Assembly (NCBI GenBank): GCA_003635305.1
Contig: PYJE01000200.1
Location: forward strand, 27,171 to 89,769
Direction: 5' to 3'
DNA length: 62,599 nt
DNA from: Candidatus Poribacteria bacterium
GTDB taxonomy: Bacteria > Poribacteria > WGA-4E > WGA-3G
In this document: one piece after another, positions 4,275 to 25,564 of the stretch
Numbering within the stretch: the first letter of the stretch is position 1
How the letters are laid out: every line of letters starts with the position of its first letter
Position numbers and translations under genes: made by a program
Notes under the pieces: generated by a model
Told to the model about the DNA's origin: nothing
Seen by the model: the letters and a program-made list of their open reading frames with translations, nothing else
The model's database searches: none

Positions 4275-4721
4275 GAGGGACCTCCTGGTCTCGATGCCCC
4301 GGTAGGCGCGGTTACAAACCGCGCCTACCAGAGGGTTACCATAGGGCGCGGTTTGAAACCGCGCCTACCAGAGGGTGCCCGTAGGGCGAGGGCCTGTCCC
4401 TCGCCACGCATCGATCTCCTTTTTCATGTGCACCGGCCCCACTCTGTAAGTCAAGATCGCCTGATCTTGACCCCTCTCCATTTTTTATCTTTGACATTTT
4501 TTGCACAATTTGCTAACATAACGCCATGGCTTAAATCACCGCCAACGCCTCTGGAAATCCTACTTGATCTGTTTGCGATCAGGCGATCGCAAACTACAGA
4601 GTGTCGATTTTTCATGTGCCCCGGCCCCACTCTGCAGGTCAAGATCGCCCGATCTTGACCTGTTTGCGAACAACTGGCACGTGTGCCAGATTTTCAGGCG
4701 AGCGCAAACTACAGAATAAGA
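4271..4721. repeat. Composite repeat module, copy 2 (direct repeat of 1113-1597)
   Basis: Same order of REP hairpins and the same TTGACA-17-TAACAT box (4491-4519). It begins at the TAG stop of the WD40 gene (the GTAGGAG of the REP). Confidence 0.85.
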
Positions 4722-4786
4722 GACAGGCCCCGCGCTACGTGATTCGGTATAGAAAGAAGAAACTTCACCTCAACAAGAGCCCTCGC

Positions 4787-4824
4787 ATCCTGAAAATCCT
4801 ATAATCTTGGAAATCCTGCTTCAG
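4787..4824. repeat. Right copy of the 38-bp inverted repeat
   Basis: The reverse complement ctgaagcaggatttccaagattataggattttcaggat matches 1038-1075 at 36/38. Its outer end contains the TGA stop of the 4821-5969 gene. Confidence 0.8.
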
Positions 4825-5969
4825 ACAGGAACCTCTGTCCAACCCACACTTCCCCGAATTGCATCAATCGCGATTTGATAACGCCACCCATCGTGAAGCG
4901 TCAAATACGGTTCGTGCGGACGATTTTCAATGTCGGCTAGGAAGTCGCGAACAAGCGCGGTCCACTTGTTTTGGATGTCATCGCCGATGCGCGGAAGGGC
5001 ATCTGAAAACGCCTGCGGAATAGGTAATTCCTCTACTGTATCACCGCGATATCGGGTAACCGGCGATAAGATGTGTCCGCCTCGTCCGACGAGCGTGCCT
5101 TCTGTCCCGTAGAAATACCAGCCGCCGCTGGGAGATTTTGTCGGCACACCTGGCTTCGGCCGCATCGTCACGAGGACAGGATTTTCCGTTCCTCCCAATT
5201 TGAAGAGTGCCGAATATCCCACCTCTGCGTCGCACTCGCGCCACTCCAATTTGGCAGCCTCCTCCATCGTAATCTCTTTGCTGCGCCAGACCCGGAAGTC
5301 GCGTATCTCTGGCACGACAGGTGCTTTTCTCGGCGCGAATCTCGCCTCGCCAACGGCGGAGACTACTTGCTGTCCCGTCATCTTTTCAAGCATGCCGAGT
5401 TGGTGCGTGAGCCCATTGTTAAGCGCGCCGCCGCCGTGCGCAAGGGAGTTCATCCAATTCCACGGCCTCACCCTGTTCGTCGGAGTTCCCGGAAGTCGAC
5501 GGGTGTATCCGATGTCAACCTCTTTGAGTTCGCCGATGCTCCGTTGCTGCGTAATCAGGTGTCGGACATACGCAACACTCGGTTCATACAGATGCGTCGC
5601 GGCGAAGGCGTGTTTGACCCCGGCCTCTTTGACGAGCGTGTAGAGTCTTCCCGCTTCCGCGGCGGTGAGTGCCAACGGCTTTTCGCAGATAATATGGCAG
5701 CCGAGTTGCGCCGCTAATTCGATCGGTTCGCTGCGCAAAATCGCAGGAGTCGTGATAGCGACGATGTCCGGGCGGTGTTTAAGCAGGCTCTCGCGCCAAT
5801 CAATGGAGGCTTCGGGGATACCTAACCGGTTGGCGTGTTTTTGCACGATATCAAGTTTGCGTGCACATAAGGCGAGGACTTTGACACCGTAATGTTGAAA
5901 AGCATTGGTGTGTCCTTCGGCAGACCAGCCTGCGCCGACGATGACTGCCGTTAAGTGGTTTGAGCGCAT
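4821..5969 (-). CDS. Gfo/Idh/MocA family oxidoreductase
   Basis: N-terminal Rossmann motif AVIVGAGWSAEGHTNAF, then the EKP motif (IICEKPLALT) typical of the family. 382 aa. Confidence 0.8.
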   Translation of the reverse strand: MRSNHLTAVIVGAGWSAEGHTNAFQHYGVKVLALCARKLDIVQKHANRLGIPEASIDWRESLLKHRPDIVAITTPAILRSEPIELAAQLGCHIICEKPLALTAAEAGRLYTLVKEAGVKHAFAATHLYEPSVAYVRHLITQQRSIGELKEVDIGYTRRLPGTPTNRVRPWNWMNSLAHGGGALNNGLTHQLGMLEKMTGQQVVSAVGEARFAPRKAPVVPEIRDFRVWRSKEITMEEAAKLEWRECDAEVGYSALFKLGGTENPVLVTMRPKPGVPTKSPSGGWYFYGTEGTLVGRGGHILSPVTRYRGDTVEELPIPQAFSDALPRIGDDIQNKWTALVRDFLADIENRPHEPYLTLHDGWRYQIAIDAIRGSVGWTEVPV

Positions 5970-14660: not shown

Positions 14661-14918
14661 GCCGTCAGCGCGCTTACAAAGCGCGCCTACCGGCTCGTTC
14701 CGTCAGCGCGCTTGAAAAGCGCGCCTACCGGCGCGTTTGGATTCAAAGCGCGCCTACCGGTTTGTTCCGTCAGCGCGCTTGCAAAGCGCGCCTACCGGTT
14801 CGTTCTGTAAGCGCGCCTACCGGTTTGTTCCGTCAGCGCGCCTACCGGCTCGTTCCGTCAGCGCGCTTGAAAAGCGCGCCTACCGGTTCGTTCTGTAAGC
14901 GCGCCTACCGGCGCGTTT
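14661..14918. repeat. Dense array of ~8 GC-rich REP elements (GCGCGCTTnnAAGCGCGCCTACCGG family)
   Basis: GCGCGCCTACCGG recurs 8 times in ~260 bp. The intervening segments are related, not unique. Confidence 0.85.
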
Positions 14919-17159: not shown

Positions 17160-17189
17160 TTGACAACATTGCGCAATTAATGCTATTAT
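17160..17189 (+). promoter_or_regulatory. Promoter candidate TTGACA-18 nt-TATTAT upstream of the first TIR-like gene
   Basis: Read directly. The spacer shares gc..attaatgcta with the box at 17885-17914. Confidence 0.4.
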
Positions 17190-17300
17190 AGTTTTGAGGA
17201 AGGGCAGAAGTTCTGCTTCATGGAGATGAGGCTAAATGATGCCAGTCCCATAATTTTTTAGTAAGGAGTCTGCCTCTTTTCAGCAATTTGAGGCACTATC

Positions 17301-17756
17301 ATGAATGAAAAAGTGTTCATCGTCCATGGACAGGATGAAGCGGCAAAACTTGCTGTTGCTAGGTTCGTGGATAAAGTTGGCCCAAACTTGGAACCAGTCG
17401 TTCTTGACGAACAACCAAGTGAAGGCCGAACGATCATTCACAAGTTTAAAGAGCATGCCGCCGAGGCCTGCTTTGCGGTGGTTTTGCTGACACCCGACGA
17501 TGTTGGCGGACCGAAAGATAAACCAGACGAACGTAACCTGAGAGCTCGCCAAAACGTTGTCTTGGAACTCGGTTATTTCTTGTCGGAACTCGAACCTGAA
17601 CGAGTCTGTGTTCTCTATAAAGAAGGCGTTGAACTCCCCTCGGATATATATGGCTTAGTCTATGTCCCGATGGATAGGTTTGATGGTTGGCAACTGAAAC
17701 TAGCGAGGGAAATGAAGGCGGCGGGCCTCTCCATCGATCTCAACAGACTTTTTTAA
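17301..17756 (+). CDS. Stand-alone TIR-like nucleotide-binding domain protein (CAP12/PycTIR type, COG4271-like)
   Basis: VFIVHGQDEAAK...FAVVLLTPDDVG...RARQNVVLELGYF...RVCVLYKEGVELPSDIYG matches my recollection of the PF10137 block order. 151 aa, domain only. Confidence 0.75.
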   Translation: MNEKVFIVHGQDEAAKLAVARFVDKVGPNLEPVVLDEQPSEGRTIIHKFKEHAAEACFAVVLLTPDDVGGPKDKPDERNLRARQNVVLELGYFLSELEPERVCVLYKEGVELPSDIYGLVYVPMDRFDGWQLKLAREMKAAGLSIDLNRLF

Positions 17757-17860
17757 CTGGGGAGCGTCACAGTTCTGTTTGCGATCTGGCGATCACAAAC
17801 TACAGAGACTGGGGAGCGTCACAGTTCTGTTTGCGATCTGGCGAGCGCAAACTACAGAGG
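17757..17860. repeat. 2 x 52-bp tandem repeat, each unit carrying a CTGTTTGCGATC..GATC.CAAACTACAG REP hairpin
   Basis: ctggggagcgtcacagttctgtttgcgatctggcga(tca/gcg)caaactacagag occurs twice, starting right after the TAA stop. Confidence 0.9.
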
Positions 17861-17884
17861 TGGAAGACTTTTCTAACTTTTGAT

Positions 17885-17914
17885 TTGACACCGTTTGCGG
17901 ATTAATGCTAGAAT
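17885..17914 (+). promoter_or_regulatory. Promoter candidate TTGACA-18 nt-TAGAAT upstream of the second TIR-like gene
   Basis: Read directly. Homologous to the box at 17160-17189. Confidence 0.4.
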
Positions 17915-17984
17915 TGGTTCAGTGTTGTCTTTATTTTTCACTGGCGACCGCCGCGCTACATCAGCGTGGAAATGGAGAGAGAGT

Positions 17985-18542
17985 ATGAATGCGAAGAATC
18001 ACGATGTGGGAGCCGCTCTCACAACACCGCCCCCGCTGCTGGGCAGCAGCAAAGCCGCATCTCTGAAAAAACATCGACGCGGCTTCGGCAACGATGTGTT
18101 CATCATCCATGGGAATGACGAGACAGCGAAAACTACCGTCGCGCGGTTCGTGGATAAATTGGGCTTAAAGCCTACTATTTTTCACGAAGAACTTCACAAC
18201 GGACAGCCAGCCCCAGGGAAGTTCAAGCGACTCGCGAACGATGCGGATTTCGCTATCGTCTTGCTTACGGATGACGATGTCGGCGCAGAAAAAGATAAAC
18301 CCGCACAGGATTTGATGCCTAGAGCGCGCGAAGACGTTATCTTTGAACTCGGATATTTCTGGGGAGAACTCGGACATGAACGAGTCTGTGTCCTCTATAA
18401 GGAAGGCATTGAACTGCCATCGGGCATTCAAGAACTTGGCGTTCCGCTGGAGAACACCGAAGCCTGGCAGACGAGATTAACCCGAGAAATGGAACAGGCA
18501 GGCCTCCCTGTCAACTCGGATAAAGCCCGCGATAACCGATAA
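17985..18542 (+). CDS. TIR-like domain protein (CAP12/PycTIR type), paralogue of 17301-17756 with a ~40-aa basic N-terminal extension
   Basis: VFIIHGNDETAK...FAIVLLTDDDVG...RAREDVIFELGYF...RVCVLYKEGIELPSG. The start is moved from the track's 17895 to the ATG at 17985, which has a GGAGAGAGAG RBS and lies downstream of the promoter box. Confidence 0.7.
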   Translation: MNAKNHDVGAALTTPPPLLGSSKAASLKKHRRGFGNDVFIIHGNDETAKTTVARFVDKLGLKPTIFHEELHNGQPAPGKFKRLANDADFAIVLLTDDDVGAEKDKPAQDLMPRAREDVIFELGYFWGELGHERVCVLYKEGIELPSGIQELGVPLENTEAWQTRLTREMEQAGLPVNSDKARDNR

Positions 18543-18554
18543 AGGAGAATGGAA

Positions 18555-18764
18555 ATGTCACATTATACCGCGCAAATCCAATACACCGGCGAATGGTGGA
18601 TTGGATGGATGCATGAGATTTCTGGCGTAAATTGCCAAGAACGGACGCGGGAAGAACTGTTGGAAAGCCTGCAATCCGCGCTTCGCGACATTTTGGAATA
18701 CGACGCGCAGCAAGCAAAACGCAGCGGGGAAGACGCGTTTGAGGTAGTTGACATCGCCGTATGA
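18555..18764 (+). CDS. HicB-family antitoxin-like small protein (UPF0150 fold)
   Basis: YTAQIQYTGEWWIGWMHEISGVNCQERTREELLESLQSALRDILEY fits the short HicB pattern. The AAGGAG RBS overlaps the stop of the TIR-like gene. An alternative ATG is at 18549. Confidence 0.55.
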   Translation: MSHYTAQIQYTGEWWIGWMHEISGVNCQERTREELLESLQSALRDILEYDAQQAKRSGEDAFEVVDIAV

Positions 18765-18823
18765 AATCCAACTCGTCCGCCGCTATCACCGACTCATAGC
18801 AAGGACAAAACTAGGAAAACCGC

Positions 18824-20914
18824 ATGCCTACTCTCGATTTCAGAGGCAAACAATTTATCTATTCGCATCACCTTACCGTGCCTTTTCGCACGCTGGAGGT
18901 AGATGCGGCTAAGTCGTTCAAAAGTCCACCCTTGGATGAGCACGTGCGAGGGACAGGCCCTCGCGCTACGGGCGACACCGGAGGAAACCATCTTTCCTTG
19001 GATGAGCACGTGCGAGGGACAGGCCCTCGCGCTACGGACGACACCGGAGGAAACCCTCCTTCCTTGGATGAGGACGTGCGAGGGACAGGCCCTCGCGCTA
19101 CGGACGGCCCCGGCGGAAACCATCTTTCCTTGGATGAGCACGTGCGAGGGACAGGCCCTCGCGCTACGGACGGCCCCGTCGGAAACCACCCTTCCTTGGA
19201 TGAGAATCTCATCATTCATGGCGATAATTTGCACGCGCTGAAGGCACTCCTCCCGAAATATGCAGGGAAAATTAAGTGCGTTTACATCGATCCGCCCTAT
19301 AACACCGGCAACGAAGGCTGGGTTTACAATGATAATGTCAACAGCCCGATGATGCAAGGGTGGTTGTCGAAAAACTCGCCGATTGACGTTGAAGATATGG
19401 AACGGCACGACAAGTGGCTGTGCATGATGTGGCCGCGGTTGCACCTCTTACGGGAGCTGCTCGCCGAAGATGGCGTGATTTTTATCTCCATTGACGATAA
19501 CGAGGTGCATCTCCTCCGCGCTATCATGGATGAGATTTTCGACGCGCAACGGATTTTCCCCGATGGAAACTTCGTCGGACAATTTGTCTGGGCGGCCGGA
19601 CGGAAAAATAACGCGCGGCTCTTCTCCAACTCGCACGATTATATCTTGTGCTACCTCAAAAATCACGAGTTCCTGAATCAATCGGGAACTACGTGGCGCG
19701 TTCGGAAACAGGGACTGGACGACATCTATAAAAAACACGCCGCACTCCAACGGAAACACGGACAAGATTTTGCGACAATTGAGGGGGAATTGGCGGCATG
19801 GTTTAAAGGGCTCCCCGATGGCCATTCGGCGAAACGGCACAGCGACTACTGTTATGTGGATGGCCGAGGCCCTTACAGTTCCTCAAATACATCCGCCCCA
19901 GGTGGCAATGGGGACAGGTATCCGGTTATCCATCCGACAACGGATAAGCCGTGCGCCATTCCCGCAGGCGGTTGGCGTTATACCCGACAAGAAATGGAGG
20001 CACTTATTGCGGATAACCGCGTCCACTTTGGGACTGATGAAACCTCTGTCCCCAGACGCAAACTTTATCTGAAGGAGACTGAATACGAAGTTCCCTACAG
20101 CGTCTTCTACAAAGATGGCCAAGGGGCAACGAAGCGATTGCGTAGACTTCTTGGGCAGCCTTTCCCGTTTCCGAAAGACGAGGAAGTGCTCAAACCGCTT
20201 TTTGAGGCAGTAACAGGACCGGACGACATTATCCTTGATTCCTTTGCTGGTTCTGGCACCACGGCGCACGCTGTCCTCGCGCTCAACAGAGAAGATGGCG
20301 GCAACCGTAAGTTCATCCTTGTTGAATGTGAAGACTACGCCGACACCATCACTGCTGAACGCGTCCGGCGCGTGATGAACGGCGTGGATTCTGCCAGAGA
20401 TGCAACTCTTCGGCAAGGCTTGGGGGGTTCGTTTACCTATTGCACTCTCGGCGGGACTATTGACGAGGAAGGGATGCTTACCGGTGAAACTTTACCGACT
20501 TATGAGAATTTGGCGAGTTATATTGCGTATGTGGCGACTGGGAGTTCGGTTGCGATGGGGCGAGCGCAACCTACAGGCAGAGATGCGATGGGGCGAGCGC
20601 AACCTACAGACTGCAAACCGGAACGGCATCGAGACTGGGAGAGCTCGCCTACCGGGCAAGAGGACTACTTTTTCGGTGAGACTGAGACCCTTCGTTTCTA
20701 TCTCATCTATGAACCAGACCTTGCCTTTTTGGAGAGCGATGCGGCGGCGTTAGATGGAAATCGGGCGGCGCGGATTGCGGAACAGTGTAAGGCATCGGGG
20801 AAGAAGGCGTATGTCTGGGGTGCGCATAAGTTTATGAGTCAGAAGGAGTTGACTCCGATGGGGATTACGTTTTGTCAGTTGCCGTATAATATTTATCCTA
20901 TTATGGATGGGTAA
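18824..20914 (+). CDS. mod: Type III restriction-modification methyltransferase (Mod; beta-class N6A/N4C MTase) carrying in-frame repeat insertions
   Basis: NLIIHGDNLHALKALLPKYAGKIKCVYIDPPYNTGNEGW (motif IV DPPY) lies N-terminal to ILDSFAGSGTTAHAV (motif I FxGxG). mod-then-res gene order. Confidence 0.85.
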   Translation: MPTLDFRGKQFIYSHHLTVPFRTLEVDAAKSFKSPPLDEHVRGTGPRATGDTGGNHLSLDEHVRGTGPRATDDTGGNPPSLDEDVRGTGPRATDGPGGNHLSLDEHVRGTGPRATDGPVGNHPSLDENLIIHGDNLHALKALLPKYAGKIKCVYIDPPYNTGNEGWVYNDNVNSPMMQGWLSKNSPIDVEDMERHDKWLCMMWPRLHLLRELLAEDGVIFISIDDNEVHLLRAIMDEIFDAQRIFPDGNFVGQFVWAAGRKNNARLFSNSHDYILCYLKNHEFLNQSGTTWRVRKQGLDDIYKKHAALQRKHGQDFATIEGELAAWFKGLPDGHSAKRHSDYCYVDGRGPYSSSNTSAPGGNGDRYPVIHPTTDKPCAIPAGGWRYTRQEMEALIADNRVHFGTDETSVPRRKLYLKETEYEVPYSVFYKDGQGATKRLRRLLGQPFPFPKDEEVLKPLFEAVTGPDDIILDSFAGSGTTAHAVLALNREDGGNRKFILVECEDYADTITAERVRRVMNGVDSARDATLRQGLGGSFTYCTLGGTIDEEGMLTGETLPTYENLASYIAYVATGSSVAMGRAQPTGRDAMGRAQPTDCKPERHRDWESSPTGQEDYFFGETETLRFYLIYEPDLAFLESDAAALDGNRAARIAEQCKASGKKAYVWGAHKFMSQKELTPMGITFCQLPYNIYPIMDG
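18930..19193. repeat. 4 x 66-bp tandem repeat with a GCGAGGGACAGGCCCTCGC REP hairpin, in frame inside mod
   Basis: Units start at 18930, 18996, 19062 and 19128. Each encodes LDEHVRGTGPRAT(G/D)..GGN..S, just before the conserved NLIIHGDNL block. Confidence 0.9.
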
Positions 20915-20962
20915 GGGATTTGGAACGTAGGGTGGGGGCCTGTCCCCCGCCGTGTTAGAGCT

Positions 20963-21195
20963 GCGAGGGACAGGCCCTCGCGCTACGATGAAGGGGCGTT
21001 TAGATGAGGCGGCGTTTAAGCGAGGACTAACGATGGCACGCAACGTTGCGAGGGACAGGCCCTCGCGCTACGATGAAGGGGCGTTTAGATGAGGCGGCGT
21101 TTAAGCGAGGATAACGATGGACCCAACGTTGCGAGGGACAGGCCCTCGCGCTACGATGAAGGGGCGTTTAGATGAAGAGGCGTTTAAGGAAGAAT
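20963..21195. repeat. ~2.8 x 85-bp tandem repeat (REP hairpin plus flank) filling the mod-res spacer
   Basis: gcgagggacaggccctcgcgctacgatgaaggggcgtttagatgaggcggcgtttaagcgagga..aacgtt starts at 20963, 21048 and 21131. The last copy runs into the res RBS. Confidence 0.9.
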
Positions 21196-21199
21196 AACT

Positions 21200-24037
21200 A
21201 TGGAACTTAAAGACTATCAACAGCAAGCATTAGATACCTTGGAACGCTATTTAGTTGCACTGAGGGAGGCGCGCCAGAAGGCAGAGGAACTCGCGGCGGC
21301 ATTAGCATCGCCGGAACTCCCTTCTGTCTTGCAAGAACAAGCGGCGGCCCTGGCAGCGGATGCTGAAGACTACCCGCGGAAAGCGTGGGAAAATCTCCGA
21401 GAAAAGGGAATGTTGCCGGGTATCGCCGCTCAGGTGCCCGAGTATATTCCTCGCGAAACCGCTTCTGGTGCACCTATCCCGCACGTCTGTCTCAAAGTGC
21501 CGACAGGTGGTGGGAAGACGTTGCTTGGGGTGGAAGCGGTGCGTCGTCTTAAACTCGGCAGAGGGTTTCTCTTATGGCTTGTGCCGACGAAAGCGATTTA
21601 TACGCAGACGTGGGATGCGTTTCGGAACCGCGAGCATCCGTATCGGCAGAGCTTGGATCGGGCATCAGGTGGCCGCGTCAAACTGCTCCAAAAAGACGAC
21701 AGGTTCACGAAGCGAGACGTTGAGGACTATCTCTGTGTTATGCTCCTCATGCTGCCTGCCACGAACCGCAATCGGAACAAGGAATTTCTCAAAATGTTCC
21801 GCGATAGCAGCGGCTATGCATCCTTTTTTCCGGTCGAAGACGACATTCGGGAACACCAGGCGTTATCGGAAAAATACCCAGACCTTGAGGTAGTAGGCGA
21901 GCTCGGAGGGGGCGCGGTTACAAACCGCGCCTACGAGGGAGAAGAGCTCGGAGGGGGCGCGGTTGCAAACCGCGCCTACGGGGGAGAAGAGCTTGGAGGG
22001 GGCGCGGTTGCAAACCGCGCCTACGGGGGAGAAGAGCGAGGAGTGGACGCGGTTGCAAACCGCGCCTACGAGGGAGGAGGGGGAGGAGAGTTCGGAGAGC
22101 CCTCCGGTTCCCGAACTGAACCGCATCAACTTCGCGGCATCCTCGCTGTTAATCGCGCGGATAGGTTGATTAAGCAGAGCCTTTTCAACGTGCTGAAATT
22201 GCTACGTCCGACGGTAATCTTGGACGAGGCGCACAAAGCATACGGGAGTCGAAATGCAGAGAACAATCAGCAGTTCGTGGCGGCTGTAAACCGTCTGAAT
22301 CCGCGCTTTGTGTTGGAGCTCTCTGCCACGCCGCAGCTGGGTATCAGCAACATCCTCGTGAACGTTTCCGGTGTCGCTCTCAAGGAAGAGGAGATGGTAA
22401 AACTCCCCATCCACCTGCGGAATTTTCCGGATTCGGATTGGCGGTATACCCTTGCGCAGACGAAGGCGGAACGTGATAGCCTTGAGGAAGCGGCAAGGCA
22501 GTTTCAGACTACCGATGCCCGTTATATCCGTCCCATCGCGGTGATTCGGGTAGATAGGACGGGCAAAAACCAGCGCGATGGCGTTCGGGTGCATGCCGAA
22601 GATGCCCGCGAGGAACTGATGAACGCCCTCGGTGTGCCAGCATCGCAAATCAAGGTGAAATCGTCGGAGCAAGACGAACTCGCTGGTATTGAACTGCTCA
22701 GTCCGTTTTGCCCGGTTCGCTACATTATCACGAAAGATGCGCTGAAGGAGGGATGGGATTGTCCGTTCGCTTATCTGTTGGCACTTTTGGATAACACCAC
22801 GGCGAAGACAGCGATGACGCAGCTCATTGGCAGAGTGATGCGGCAGCCGCATGCCCGCGCCACAAACGTCGCGCAATTGGATAGCTGCTATATCTACTGC
22901 TTCAACCAAAAAGTCGGCGATGCCGTTGGCAATGTCAAGAAGGGGTTAGAGGCGGAAGGGTTAACCGGGCTTTCCGATTACGTTGAGAGTTCGGCGACGG
23001 TGCGTGTTCAGAAAACCGTTCAACGCAGGCAGGAATACCGTGAAGTGGACATCTTTTTACCGCGCGTGTTGCATAAGGAGGGACGCGGCTGGCGAACCCT
23101 CAATTATGAGCGCGACATCTTGAGCGCGCTTGACTGGTATCAGATTGGTGCGGTGGAGCCGGTGGATTTGGAATCGCAGGGGCTCTTTCAGGAGATTCGT
23201 GCCACTATCCATCTGCAGGACGAGGCGGTGATTGAAAAGGCGCGGCAAGACGGTGCCGATGCTGGTTTGGAGCTCGCCTTTTTCGTGCGGCGTTTAGCGG
23301 ATGTCGTGCCGAATCCGTGGCAATCTGCGCGCATTGTCAAAGCAACGTTTAAACTCTACCGCGAACAAGGGATTTCTGAAGAGACCTTGGTTCAGAATAG
23401 GCTCTATCTCTCGGAGGTGTTGAAACACCGCCTGCGCGAACGCATTGAGCAGTTGTCTGAAAACATCTTCCGTGAGAAGTTGGCGACTCACAAAATTCAG
23501 TTTCGCCTGGAGACAGATGTGGCGTTAAACTACGAGTTAGAAAAAACGCTTGAGGTTAACCTGTCGCAGGGTGCCAGACCATTGACGCGGCCGCATGGAG
23601 ATGCGTTGCAACTGAACCTATTTGAGCCGGTTTTCGAGGCGGAATTCAACAATTTAGAGAAAGATTTCGCGCTCTATCTGGACGAAAAATCGGCGATTCA
23701 GTGGTGGCATCGTATCGCGGCGAAGCAGGGATATTTCTTGCAGGGGTGGCGGCGCGAGCGGGTTTATCCCGATTTCATCGCCTGTCTCCAGCGGCGAAAC
23801 CATCATCCGCGACGATTGCTCATCTTTGAGACGAAGGGACAGCAGCTTGAGGGCAACAGCGATACGACTTACAAGCAGCGGTTGATTGCGACTTTAGAGG
23901 AGGCGTATCGGAATTCAAGTTCGTATGGTATGATGAACGCTGCCGGCCCGAATGATTCGGCGATGTCGTTTCGGATGCTGTTTGAAAATAGTTGGCGGGT
24001 GGAGGTTAATGAGGTGATTGGGGCTCGCTGCAGGTAG
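21200..24037 (+). CDS. res: Type III restriction enzyme Res subunit (SF2 DEAH helicase + C-terminal PD-(D/E)xK nuclease) carrying an in-frame repeat insertion
   Basis: LKVPTGGGKT (Walker A), VILDEAHKA (DEAH), QLIGRVMRQ (motif VI), and C-terminal YPDFIA...LLIFETKGQ nuclease motif. 945 aa. Confidence 0.85.
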   Translation: MELKDYQQQALDTLERYLVALREARQKAEELAAALASPELPSVLQEQAAALAADAEDYPRKAWENLREKGMLPGIAAQVPEYIPRETASGAPIPHVCLKVPTGGGKTLLGVEAVRRLKLGRGFLLWLVPTKAIYTQTWDAFRNREHPYRQSLDRASGGRVKLLQKDDRFTKRDVEDYLCVMLLMLPATNRNRNKEFLKMFRDSSGYASFFPVEDDIREHQALSEKYPDLEVVGELGGGAVTNRAYEGEELGGGAVANRAYGGEELGGGAVANRAYGGEERGVDAVANRAYEGGGGGEFGEPSGSRTEPHQLRGILAVNRADRLIKQSLFNVLKLLRPTVILDEAHKAYGSRNAENNQQFVAAVNRLNPRFVLELSATPQLGISNILVNVSGVALKEEEMVKLPIHLRNFPDSDWRYTLAQTKAERDSLEEAARQFQTTDARYIRPIAVIRVDRTGKNQRDGVRVHAEDAREELMNALGVPASQIKVKSSEQDELAGIELLSPFCPVRYIITKDALKEGWDCPFAYLLALLDNTTAKTAMTQLIGRVMRQPHARATNVAQLDSCYIYCFNQKVGDAVGNVKKGLEAEGLTGLSDYVESSATVRVQKTVQRRQEYREVDIFLPRVLHKEGRGWRTLNYERDILSALDWYQIGAVEPVDLESQGLFQEIRATIHLQDEAVIEKARQDGADAGLELAFFVRRLADVVPNPWQSARIVKATFKLYREQGISEETLVQNRLYLSEVLKHRLRERIEQLSENIFREKLATHKIQFRLETDVALNYELEKTLEVNLSQGARPLTRPHGDALQLNLFEPVFEAEFNNLEKDFALYLDEKSAIQWWHRIAAKQGYFLQGWRRERVYPDFIACLQRRNHHPRRLLIFETKGQQLEGNSDTTYKQRLIATLEEAYRNSSSYGMMNAAGPNDSAMSFRMLFENSWRVEVNEVIGARCR
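21899..22078. repeat. 4 x 45-bp tandem repeat with a GGCGCGGTTnCAAACCGCGCC REP hairpin, in frame inside res
   Basis: Units start at 21899, 21944, 21989 and 22034. Each encodes ELGGGAV(T/A)NRAY(E/G)GE, between helicase motifs I and II. Confidence 0.9.
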
Positions 24038-24352: not shown

Positions 24353-25564
24353 ATGGCACTGCTAGCCCACAAGACAGCATTGCAACCGAATAAGGCGCAG
24401 AAGAAGGTGCTGAACCAGCACTGCGACTTCGCGCGCAACGCCTATAATGCCGCCCTGTCCGATTTTAAAGCAGGTTTGGATAACGGCGAATTCCGTTCGG
24501 TTTACGATTTGAAGAAGCTCTTCAACGCACGCAAGCGTGAGGCGTTTCCCGAAATCGATGGAAACCTGTCCATGAACGCAGGCAAGAATGCTATCCACAA
24601 TTTCCACGATGCTGTCAAACGCTGGCAGTCAGGACAGAACAACTTCCCGAAGCGGAAGAAGCATAACAGCCGTTCATCATTCCAAATTGATAACGGCGTT
24701 GGCAGTGTCAAGGTATCGGAGGATGGAAACCAGCACGTCATCCTCCCGAAAATCGGTAAGGTTCGCCTCGCTGAGAAACCACGCTGGACAGGTAAAGTCA
24801 GGCGTGCTGTCATTTCACGGACAGCTCACAGGTGGCAGATTAGCATGCTATTTGAGGTGGACGAACCCGAACCCCCCGATACATCACGTCTTCCCGCTGA
24901 AGGATGTGATGTCGGTATCAGCCAATTGGCAACCCTCAGCGATGGCACGACTTTTGAAAATCCACGCGCACTCCGTGTGCAAGAACGTAAACTGAAACGC
25001 CTGAACCGCAGTCTCTCCCGCAAAACATACCGCAGTGGCGGTTGGTGGAAAGCGAAGGAACTGCTAGCACGGTTGCATTTGCGAATTCGGCATATTCGGA
25101 TGGATGCACATCATCAGGCGACGCACAGGATATTGCAAGGCATTTCCGCGCTAGGCATAGAAAGCCTATCCGTCAAAGGACTGATGAAGAATCGCAAATT
25201 GAGCAAGGCATTAGCCGATGCCAGTCTCGGCGGTTTCCTCGTGAAACTGAAATATAAGGCGGTTCGGCGTGGCATTCGCATTGTGGAGGCAGACAGATTC
25301 TGGCCCTCTACCAAGCGGTGTAGCTCCTGTGGATATGTGAAAAAGAAAGTGTCATTATCCGAACGTGACTACCATTGCGGTGTCTGTGGTTTTCAAGCCG
25401 ACAGAGACGTGAATGCCGCGATAAACCTTAAGCAACTCGCTTCCAGCACGGATGAGCGTCTAAACGCCGTTGGAGCGTCTATAACACCTACCGCGGTAGG
25501 CTGGACGCGTGGAAGGCGGAAAGTCAAACCGAACCAAACGCTAATTGATTTCGCTACTGCGTAA
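24353..25564 (+). CDS. tnpB: TnpB (OrfB) RNA-guided endonuclease, RuvC + zinc ribbon, apparently intact
   Basis: GCDVGISQLATLSDG (RuvC-I D), LGIESLSVKGLMKN (RuvC-II E), CSSCGY...CGVCGF (Zn ribbon) and ADRDVNAAINL (RuvC-III D). 403 aa. Confidence 0.9.
   Translation: MALLAHKTALQPNKAQKKVLNQHCDFARNAYNAALSDFKAGLDNGEFRSVYDLKKLFNARKREAFPEIDGNLSMNAGKNAIHNFHDAVKRWQSGQNNFPKRKKHNSRSSFQIDNGVGSVKVSEDGNQHVILPKIGKVRLAEKPRWTGKVRRAVISRTAHRWQISMLFEVDEPEPPDTSRLPAEGCDVGISQLATLSDGTTFENPRALRVQERKLKRLNRSLSRKTYRSGGWWKAKELLARLHLRIRHIRMDAHHQATHRILQGISALGIESLSVKGLMKNRKLSKALADASLGGFLVKLKYKAVRRGIRIVEADRFWPSTKRCSSCGYVKKKVSLSERDYHCGVCGFQADRDVNAAINLKQLASSTDERLNAVGASITPTAVGWTRGRRKVKPNQTLIDFATA

Follow-up and report, generated by a model that had tools for sequence, protein, structure and literature searches.

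Short TIR genes and an orphan hicB gene in front of a type III restriction-modification operon of a Candidatus Poribacteria bacterium

TIR domains of the Pfam family PF10137 are found in Cap12 (the TIR-STING protein of CBASS) and in PycTIR (Pycsar), and the short, UPF0150/TTHA1013-type HicB antitoxins are encoded ahead of HicA in type II toxin-antitoxin (TA) systems. The anticodon nuclease PrrC is embedded in the type Ic restriction-modification (R-M) locus EcoprrI. We analyzed a 62,599-nucleotide stretch of a Candidatus Poribacteria genome (assembly GCA_003635305.1, contig PYJE01000200.1, positions 27,171 to 89,769; hereafter the window), in which two short TIR genes, TIR1 and TIR2, and a small hicB-like gene stand in front of the type III R-M genes mod and res. 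A first-pass annotation, made from the sequence alone, had proposed that the TIR and HicB proteins form a new toxin-antitoxin or abortive-infection module. Our preferred reading, to which we assign a probability of roughly 0.55, is that this region makes up the variable front of a type III R-M operon, with the TIR genes as embedded cargo and hicB as an orphan left over from a hicBA cassette. Embedded genes of this kind have been described by Payne et al. in Hma, BREX, DISARM and type I R-M systems, in the preprint from which the candidate systems (PDCs) of PADLOC derive and which places PrrC almost exclusively in type I R-M loci (bioRxiv 10.1101/2024.01.29.577857).

The TIR genes and the operon they precede

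The gene order TIR1 - TIR2 - hicB - mod - res, all on the + strand, was read from the open reading frame (ORF) listing and the raw sequence. The features of the region, with lengths in amino acids (aa), are these:

17160-17189, + strand: promoter-like box P1, 5' of TIR1 (TTGACA-18-TATTAT, TG-extended -10)
17301-17756, + strand: TIR1, 151 aa, PF10137 TIR domain only
17756-17859, no strand: 52-bp x 2 tandem repeat in the TIR1-TIR2 gap, an imperfect hairpin per unit
17885-17914, + strand: promoter-like box P2, 5' of TIR2 (TTGACA-18-TAGAAT, TG-extended -10)
17985-18542, + strand: TIR2, 185 aa, a low-complexity N-terminal tail of ~35 aa and a PF10137 TIR domain
18543-18764, + strand: orphan hicB cassette, ribosome-binding site (RBS) AGGAG and a 69-aa ORF (ATG at 18555)
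18761-18823, + strand: hicA-ATG/mod-leader junction, ATGA overlap with the hicB stop
18824-20914, + strand: Mod, type III methyltransferase, 696 aa (PF01555, 3e-31; PADLOC MTase_III, 1.2e-168)
21200-24037, + strand: Res, type III helicase-nuclease, 945 aa (PADLOC REase_III, 9.8e-232; Pfam ResIII, PF04851)
24353-25564, + strand: TnpB/Cas12f-like ORF, 403 aa (PADLOC Cas12f, 7.5e-68)

PADLOC and Pfam both identified Mod and Res as a type III R-M pair, and the placement of the TIR-like genes at the head of an R-M island, as first proposed, is borne out by this pair downstream. TIR1 and TIR2 were 53% identical over 146 aa (BLASTP, E value = 2e-49), close to the 55% or so estimated by eye for the two paralogous ORFs of 151 and 185 aa, and the four TIR motifs quoted in the first-pass annotation were present in both. 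The 185-aa reading of TIR2 was preferred because an alternative TTG start at 17895 falls inside the promoter-like box; the TIR2 ortholog in the syntenic locus L001 was called at 187 aa (loci from our surveys carry L numbers). Both proteins scored far over the Pfam cut-off of 24.7 bits for PF10137 (CAP12-PCTIR_TIR; TIR1, 122.9 bits, E value = 9e-36; TIR2, 99.3 bits, E value = 2e-28), which places them in the CAP12/PycTIR-type family suggested at first pass; the NCBIfam Cap12 equivalog models gave 28 to 35 bits (cut-off, 450).

Both proteins also matched the PADLOC profiles of PDC-S35, which are 231 to 278 aa long (TIR1, E value = 2.4e-64; TIR2, E value = 7.2e-48), over profile positions 118 to 262 and 111 to 262 of 264, respectively. 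Full-length PDC-S35 proteins cover positions 4 to 261 (L047, E value = 3e-87) or 4 to 262 (protein P0073). TIR1 and TIR2 lack the N-terminal helical domain of ~115 aa seen in the canonical members and retain the TIR domain, a conserved C-terminal helix and the predicted catalytic Glu. Judged by these matches, they appear to be short variants of the candidate PDC-S35 without its N-terminal domain, arranged as a tandem pair. We also considered whether the long PDC-S35 proteins carry a fused HicB domain and rejected this, the N termini being helical and unrelated to HicB; a phage origin was likewise rejected, with only five weak or short phage matches.

The AlphaFold2 model of TIR1 (pLDDT, 83.9) returned TIR-STING structures as its top 10 Foldseek matches (9lmq, 9lmr and 7un8; E values from 4e-8 to 3e-6, TMq of ~0.65), followed by the TIR domains of SPARTA, TLR and SARM1. 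The predicted catalytic Glu is E89 in TIR1 (NVVLELG) and E121 in TIR2 (DVIFELG). E89 was invariant in an alignment of 30 TIR homologs, 21 invariant residues being retained, and it aligned with the Glu of NVVFEFG in the SfSTING structure 7un8. Morehouse et al. (2020) are said to have identified the Glu of this NVxxExG motif as catalytic in SfSTING. The family comprises more than 6000 homologs, hundreds of them of ~153 aa and many in Poribacteria-type assemblies. Nei-Gojobori estimates of dN/dS (omega) were 0.13 to 0.26 for the TIR genes, with 0.13 for TIR1 against its L001 ortholog.

The first-pass annotation had given each TIR gene a homologous promoter box, and P1 and P2 were indeed found and mutually alignable, each being a near-consensus, sigma-70-like box (11 of 12 matches) whose -10 is extended by TG. 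Within 1.8 kb there are no other such boxes. The case for promoters rests on their positions and mutual similarity, because the box count alone was not above the shuffle expectation (1.6 +/- 1.4). No promoter-like box was found by the scan between TIR2, hicB and mod, so that TIR2-hicB-mod(-res) is probably one transcript; hicB, with no promoter of its own, would be cotranscribed with TIR2. The 52-bp tandem repeat was found nowhere else in the window, and the idea that it forms a structured element was rejected, since its fold z of -1.4 did not reach significance.

Among the 55 other ORFs in the window, a PADLOC scan (E <= 1e-5) detected no match to a model for CD-NTase, cyclase, SAVED or ThsA; its matches were limited to the TnpB/Cas12f-like ORF, mad2 and HEAT-ARM models. 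A "Csx1" match, considered as a CARF partner, was the TnpB/Cas12f-like ORF. The statement in the first-pass annotation that CD-NTase, pyrimidine cyclase, SAVED/CARF and ThsA partners are missing is thus in agreement with the scan. TIR1 and TIR2 themselves consist of the TIR domain without a STING or cyclic-nucleotide-monophosphate (cNMP)-binding sensor domain. With neither cyclase nor sensor domain, they therefore cannot be cyclic-nucleotide effectors.

By homology to the TIR domains of Cap12 and PycTIR, TIR1 and TIR2 would most likely be NAD+ hydrolases, and the role in defense or abortive infection suggested at first pass is judged likely. Self-association of the TIR domains, as in TIR-STING filaments, would activate them, and the resulting depletion of NAD+ would bring about abortive infection beside restriction. 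The switch could be an assembly driven by expression or concentration, by analogy with plant TIR-only proteins, or, compatibly with this, a PrrC-like coupling to Mod and Res.

Type III R-M operons as a recurrent context of TIR genes

On the TIR side we surveyed 80 loci from diverse genomes (Poribacteria, Latescibacteria, Chloroflexota, Proteobacteria, Nitrospira, cyanobacteria and others) and used the window Mod and Res as queries against all of them. Mod homologs with 42 to 83% identity flank the TIR genes in L001, L002, L005, L006, L008, L009, L010, L012, L018, L099 and L100. One or more TIR genes are followed by Mod and Res in the window and in L001, L002, L008, L010 and L018, and Mod is followed by the TIR genes and then Res in L012; L009 is arranged likewise, with Res not seen within the available sequence. 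N6_N4_Mtase was the commonest immediate neighbor of the TIR gene (upstream in 9/71 and downstream in 4/74 cases). Outside Poribacteria, the order Mod-TIR-(X)-Res was found in Halieaceae (L047), Spirochaetia (L055), Azophilus (L074), Caldilineaceae (L052) and Nitrospira (L080), and the Mod stop overlaps the TIR start in L047, L055 and L080. The TIR protein in these operons is a PDC-S35 of full length. Moreover, one 730-aa ORF at L100 6070-8262 (P0241; related to P0242) fuses the two proteins, with an N-terminal extension, PF10137 at residues 138 to 258 and a type III-like N6_N4_Mtase domain at 359 to 673; the fusion is confined to two related protein clusters. A search anchored on Mod found TIR genes upstream in two of five distinct loci (L187 and L193). 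These results indicate that type III R-M is the recurrent partner of the TIR genes, both in Poribacteria and Latescibacteria and in a further four to five lineages.

Linkage to R-M was more frequent among short forms (<=190 aa), at 5/8, than among long forms, at 8/72 (Fisher test ignoring phylogeny, P value = 0.002), an enrichment that is suggestive only, because the short forms come mostly from one phylum. Since about 84% of the family members have no adjacent Mod gene, R-M embedding is frequent and not obligatory.

Other small genes share these operon positions. In 7 of the 80 loci, from several phyla (L047, L055, L074, L044, L062, L072 and L082, at ~4440-5150), only a few bases separate the TIR stop from the start of a gene for an MNT nucleotidyltransferase (~101 aa). 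A DUF86/HEPN-like ORF usually comes next, with the order Mod-TIR-MNT-HEPN-Res in three loci, and the same positions also hold HTH-M78 and AAA_15/21 ATPase genes. The presence of unrelated cassettes at the same positions fits generic embedding. Clustering of the small ORFs that flank the TIR genes in the 80 loci returned MNT (7 loci) and, beyond it, no more than a few pairs; a universal small TIR partner was rejected, the candidate 96-aa plasmid ORF occurring in only two loci (L036 and L041).

The TIRs may instead be NAD+-depleting accessory effectors, physically tied to the type III Mod/Res complex, that would be silent as long as the complex is intact and fire, in the manner of PrrC, when a phage anti-restriction factor disables it, an explanation that we regard as possible and rather unlikely. 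The short forms would then have given up an N-terminal sensor and left sensing to the R-M complex, and hicBA and MNT-HEPN would belong to the same multilayer operon, an extension that we hold to be equally doubtful. The Mod/TIR overlaps, the position of TIR between mod and res in at least five lineages, the TIR::Mod fusion protein, the more frequent R-M linkage of the short forms and the lack of a promoter-like box between TIR2, hicB and mod in the window all speak for such a tie. It is harder to reconcile with the large share of the family that has no adjacent Mod, with the short-form arrays without R-M in L016, L096 and L104 and with the rarity of the fusion; furthermore, hicBA, MNT-HEPN, HTH-M78 and AAA_15/21 genes occupy the same positions as the TIR genes.

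Three side observations concern these neighborhoods. Small coiled-coil proteins (86 to 157 aa, no Pfam family), some with a C-terminal hydrophobic segment, recur in TIR-Mod-Res operons (L002 7649-7909, L187 7692-8587 and L193 7318-7791). In another assembly, a homologous HTH-M78-Mod-Res operon is directly preceded by genes of a CBASS-like set (L188 1682-4544; patatin, DncV-like NTase and SEC-C), and these R-M loci therefore sit in broader defense islands. A long-form TIR homolog of 299 aa, annotated as a "nucleotide-binding protein," occurs in 1156 plasmid records, mostly from Klebsiella and E. coli (for example, L195 4274-5453 on the E. coli IncF plasmid pMTY18780-2 and L196 on the K. pneumoniae plasmid pVir-1). 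The plasmid gene is preceded by the overlapping 96-aa ORF, is convergent with a gene for a KAP-type P-loop NTPase and lies beside pifC on the E. coli plasmid.

Origin of the hicB gene

The stop of TIR2 (TAA, 18540-18542) abuts AGGAG, and the hicB ATG at 18555 comes 7 nt after it, which matches the first-pass description of a TIR2 stop at the RBS of a HicB-like gene of ~70 aa. Of the two possible starts, 18549 and 18555, the latter fits the MSHYTAQ start of the homologs and gives 69 aa. Pfam matches were below threshold (DUF1902, 15.1 bits, cut-off 22; UPF0150, 13.9 bits, cut-off 27.3), and UPF0150 was weakly matched by 38 of 48 homologs. There were 3348 homologs, labeled HicB by NCBI and JGI. 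The AlphaFold2 model (pLDDT, 81.6) has a beta-beta-beta-alpha fold, and its top Foldseek matches were TTHA0281, the SWOL_0700 antitoxin, B. pseudomallei HicB and TTHA1013, with probabilities of 0.89 to 0.98 and E values of 0.3 to 1, poor values of the kind expected for a query of 71 aa. The homolog labels, weak UPF0150 matches and HicB-type top folds are consistent with the HicB-like assignment made at first pass, and the window protein would have the short HicB/UPF0150-type antitoxin fold, akin to the partial RNase H-like N-terminal fold of HicB, without a DNA-binding domain.

On the HicB side we surveyed 80 metagenomic loci of the window hicB family, 76 of them assessable (4 end at a contig edge). 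HicA came next in 62 of the 76 (61 overlapping, 1 nearby), and 14 were orphans; no TIR gene lay within 2.5 kb of hicB in any of the 80. In eight places (L084-L091), the gene of a homolog with 67% identity overlaps by 4 nt a downstream gene for a HicA of 61 aa (PF07927). In this family hicB comes first and hicA second, the two sharing 4 nt (ATGA), and the ...GTATGA... junction is identical in the window, where the hicB stop is overlapped via ATGA by a 12-codon ORF (18761-18799). That no intact hicA but only this ORF is present, as first noted, was confirmed, and neither tblastn nor jackhmmer found HicA similarity in the hicB-mod spacer or anywhere in the window. The 12-codon ORF was rejected as a hicA remnant beyond its ATG; it is the mod leader, common to L001.

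The origin of this arrangement can be traced in L001 and L002, which have the same flanks as the window (a bioF-like aminotransferase gene on one side and PALP on the other) and a Mod-Res pair. The order is HicB-a (truncated), HicB-b, TIR1, TIR2, Mod, Res in L001 and 86-aa transmembrane protein, HicB-a, HicB-b, TIR1, Mod, Res in L002. Window positions 17288-18537 are colinear with TIR1-TIR2 of L001 (68% nt identity), and positions 18757-18923 align with L001 9241-9406, its TIR2-mod spacer. Between them, positions 18543-18756 are ~92% identical in nucleotides to HicB-a of L001 and L002, where HicB-a precedes the TIR genes. The flanking colinearity and the HicB-a match together indicate that the window hicB is an inserted cassette of ~215 bp, RBS plus ORF, that sits exactly behind the TIR2 stop and ahead of the mod leader. 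Its 3' junction lies at CCGTAT(G/A)A, the hicB stop/hicA start, and of hicA only the ATG is left.

Whole and broken cassettes are also found in other operons. L018 has an intact hicB-hicA pair in the gap from mod to res (HicA PF07927, 35.8 bits), and L010 has hicB at the same place; neither touches the TIR gene. L189 (7700-8150) has Mod-HicB-Res without a TIR gene, and this HicB belongs to another subfamily (PF15919, HicB_lk); a 73-aa HicA missed by the gene caller (PF07927, 55.5 bits) comes right after it, making an intact hicBA between mod and res. An insertion of ~460 nt interrupts hicA in L092 and L093. It would appear that hicB-hicA cassettes repeatedly lodge in type III R-M operons and that, in the window, hicA was lost through recombination at the hicB stop/hicA start, which brought hicB up against the mod leader. 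The orphan HicB was perhaps retained against hicA copies elsewhere, or for another role.

The second copy of the relatives, HicB-b (86 aa), has lost its normal stop and carries a 17-aa C-terminal extension that overlaps the TIR1 start (TAATG); in the window it is replaced by promoter P1. The hicB copies of L001 and L002 have damaged C termini. Omega was 0.13 for HicB-b and 0.08 to 0.26 for all genes, indicating purifying selection throughout, and dS was 0.95 to 1.5 for the TIR and Mod genes versus 0.40 for a flanking gene. These estimates suggest that the genes of the island are functional, though as alleles that are older or were exchanged, and that the orphan hicB genes are not simply decaying.

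That the short TIRs are nonfunctional PDC-S35 fragments and hicB is junk in an eroding defense island seems improbable to us. The missing N-terminal domain, the damaged hicB C termini, the REP-like repeats throughout the island, even within mod and res, and the TIR fragments of 101 aa in L010 and 79 aa in L099 would all fit erosion, but it conflicts with omega values of 0.13 to 0.26 for the TIR genes and ~0.1 for hicB, with intact ORFs that each have a near-consensus promoter and RBS, with the retained catalytic Glu and 21 invariant residues and with the hundreds of ~153-aa homologs in many assemblies.

A directly adjacent HicB was found in none of the 80 TIR loci, two of which have HicB ~1.8 kb away. 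TIR-HicB adjacency was seen only in the window and its two syntenic relatives, with differing gene orders, and TIR-only arrays without any HicB persist in L005, L009, L016, L096 and L104. The neighborhood survey that the first-pass annotation had suggested for recurrence of the pair accordingly showed no conservation beyond one syntenic locus. TIR and HicB are not a conserved pair, because each occurs separately in restriction operons of other bacteria. Nor does the TIR gene occupy the HicA slot, as had been claimed: this slot is 3' of hicB, where the window has the mod leader, and TIR2 lies upstream.

The first-pass proposal of a TIR NADase toxin neutralized by a HicB-fold protein, with TIR in place of HicA, is thereby weakened and largely not supported, and we give it very little credence: the tight linkage and probable cotranscription of hicB with TIR2, the HicB-b/TIR1 overlap, the purifying selection on the orphan hicB genes and the antitoxin-type MNT gene directly 3' of TIR in 7/80 loci would favor it, but the pair is absent from both sets of 80 loci, hicB shifts position among the relatives, MNT and HicB usually accompany their own toxins (HEPN and HicA) and L189 has hicBA between mod and res without a TIR gene.

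Two palindromic repeat families and the ORF that follows res were also recorded. A REP-like palindrome (GCGAGGGACAGGCCCTCGC core) has 12 copies in the window, including copies at 1222, 4380, 36294, 36471 and 47975. Four form an in-frame 66-bp tandem (18930-19204) that adds ~88 aa to the Mod N terminus, and a further three belong to an 83-bp tandem in the mod-res gap (20962-21204). The syntenic Mods (587 and 542 aa) lack this insertion, and the same element surrounds the hicB copies in L001 and L002. The second family (GGCGCGGTTGCAAACCGCGCC-type) is represented by four in-frame 45-bp units in Res (21899-22076), which has 945 aa versus 883 aa in the relatives, and by an intergenic array 5' of a PhyH gene (14662-14911). 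The TnpB/Cas12f-like ORF lies directly 3' of res in the window and is absent in L001 and L002, where PALP follows res.

Weighing the preferred reading and comparison with known systems

Several points weigh against the reading of embedded TIR cargo with an orphan hicB. HicB-b is translationally coupled to TIR1 in L001 and L002, with TIR1 in the HicA slot, and the window-type hicB (HicB-a) is under purifying selection (omega, 0.08 to 0.15), which a pure remnant would not predict. Most family members have no adjacent Mod gene, and most R-M-linked short forms come from one phylum, so that the counts are not phylogenetically independent. The reading also gives no account of how a TIR without a sensor is silenced and triggered. 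Finally, the name PDC-S35 does not appear in the readable text and supplements of the guilt-by-embedding preprint (bioRxiv 10.1101/2024.01.29.577857), and our literature search returned no paper naming it, which leaves it with candidate status only. The same search returned no paper on a HicB and TIR pairing, on a TIR link to type III R-M or on the plasmid protein accessions; in the PF10137 papers found, the profile was used only to search for TIRs.

The cross-phylum association of TIR genes with type III R-M and the Mod fusion are, in our opinion, the parts worth following. The TIR genes within type III mod-res operons, together with the fusion, offer a testable case for a coupling of restriction with NAD+ depletion as a back-up, and the homologs on enterobacterial IncF plasmids offer a tractable experimental entry point. 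The locus is also a caution for toxin-antitoxin calls, as a tidy RBS-overlap pairing arose here from cassette insertion and hicA loss.

The window TIRs share PF10137 and the conserved Glu of the NVxxExG motif with Cap12 and PycTIR, and TIR-STING is their best structural match; unlike those proteins, they lack a sensor domain of the STING or cNMP-binding kind, and no gene for a CD-NTase or cyclase accompanies them. If the short TIRs are active, a Cap12/PycTIR-type NADase domain would work without a cyclic-nucleotide sensor or N-terminal domain, which brings its switch into question. Plant TIR-only proteins, which are activated by concentration- or substrate-induced condensation according to one report (PMC10972746), are similarly free of a sensor, and by analogy expression or self-association could be the switch; they belong to a distant, eukaryotic TIR clade, and the likeness is an analogy only.

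The window hicB comes from the same ~70-aa family as the antitoxins of short, antitoxin-first HicB-HicA modules, but it has no hicA beyond an ATG and is located 3' of a TIR gene within an R-M operon. With PrrC the locus shares an abortive-infection-type effector gene placed within a restriction operon; in some relatives this gene separates the one for modification from the one for restriction. It differs in that the effector is a TIR rather than a HEPN-type nuclease, the R-M system is type III rather than type I, the embedding is not obligatory and physical coupling of TIR to R-M is indicated only by one rare fusion. The closest likeness is to PDC-S35, a PADLOC single-gene candidate of the same family as TIR1 and TIR2 that is likewise embedded in a multigene defense system. 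Canonical PDC-S35 proteins have ~250 to 300 aa and an N-terminal helical domain, whereas the window proteins are the TIR half only, in a tandem pair, and their host is a type III R-M system rather than Hma, BREX, DISARM or type I R-M, which extends guilt by embedding to type III R-M.

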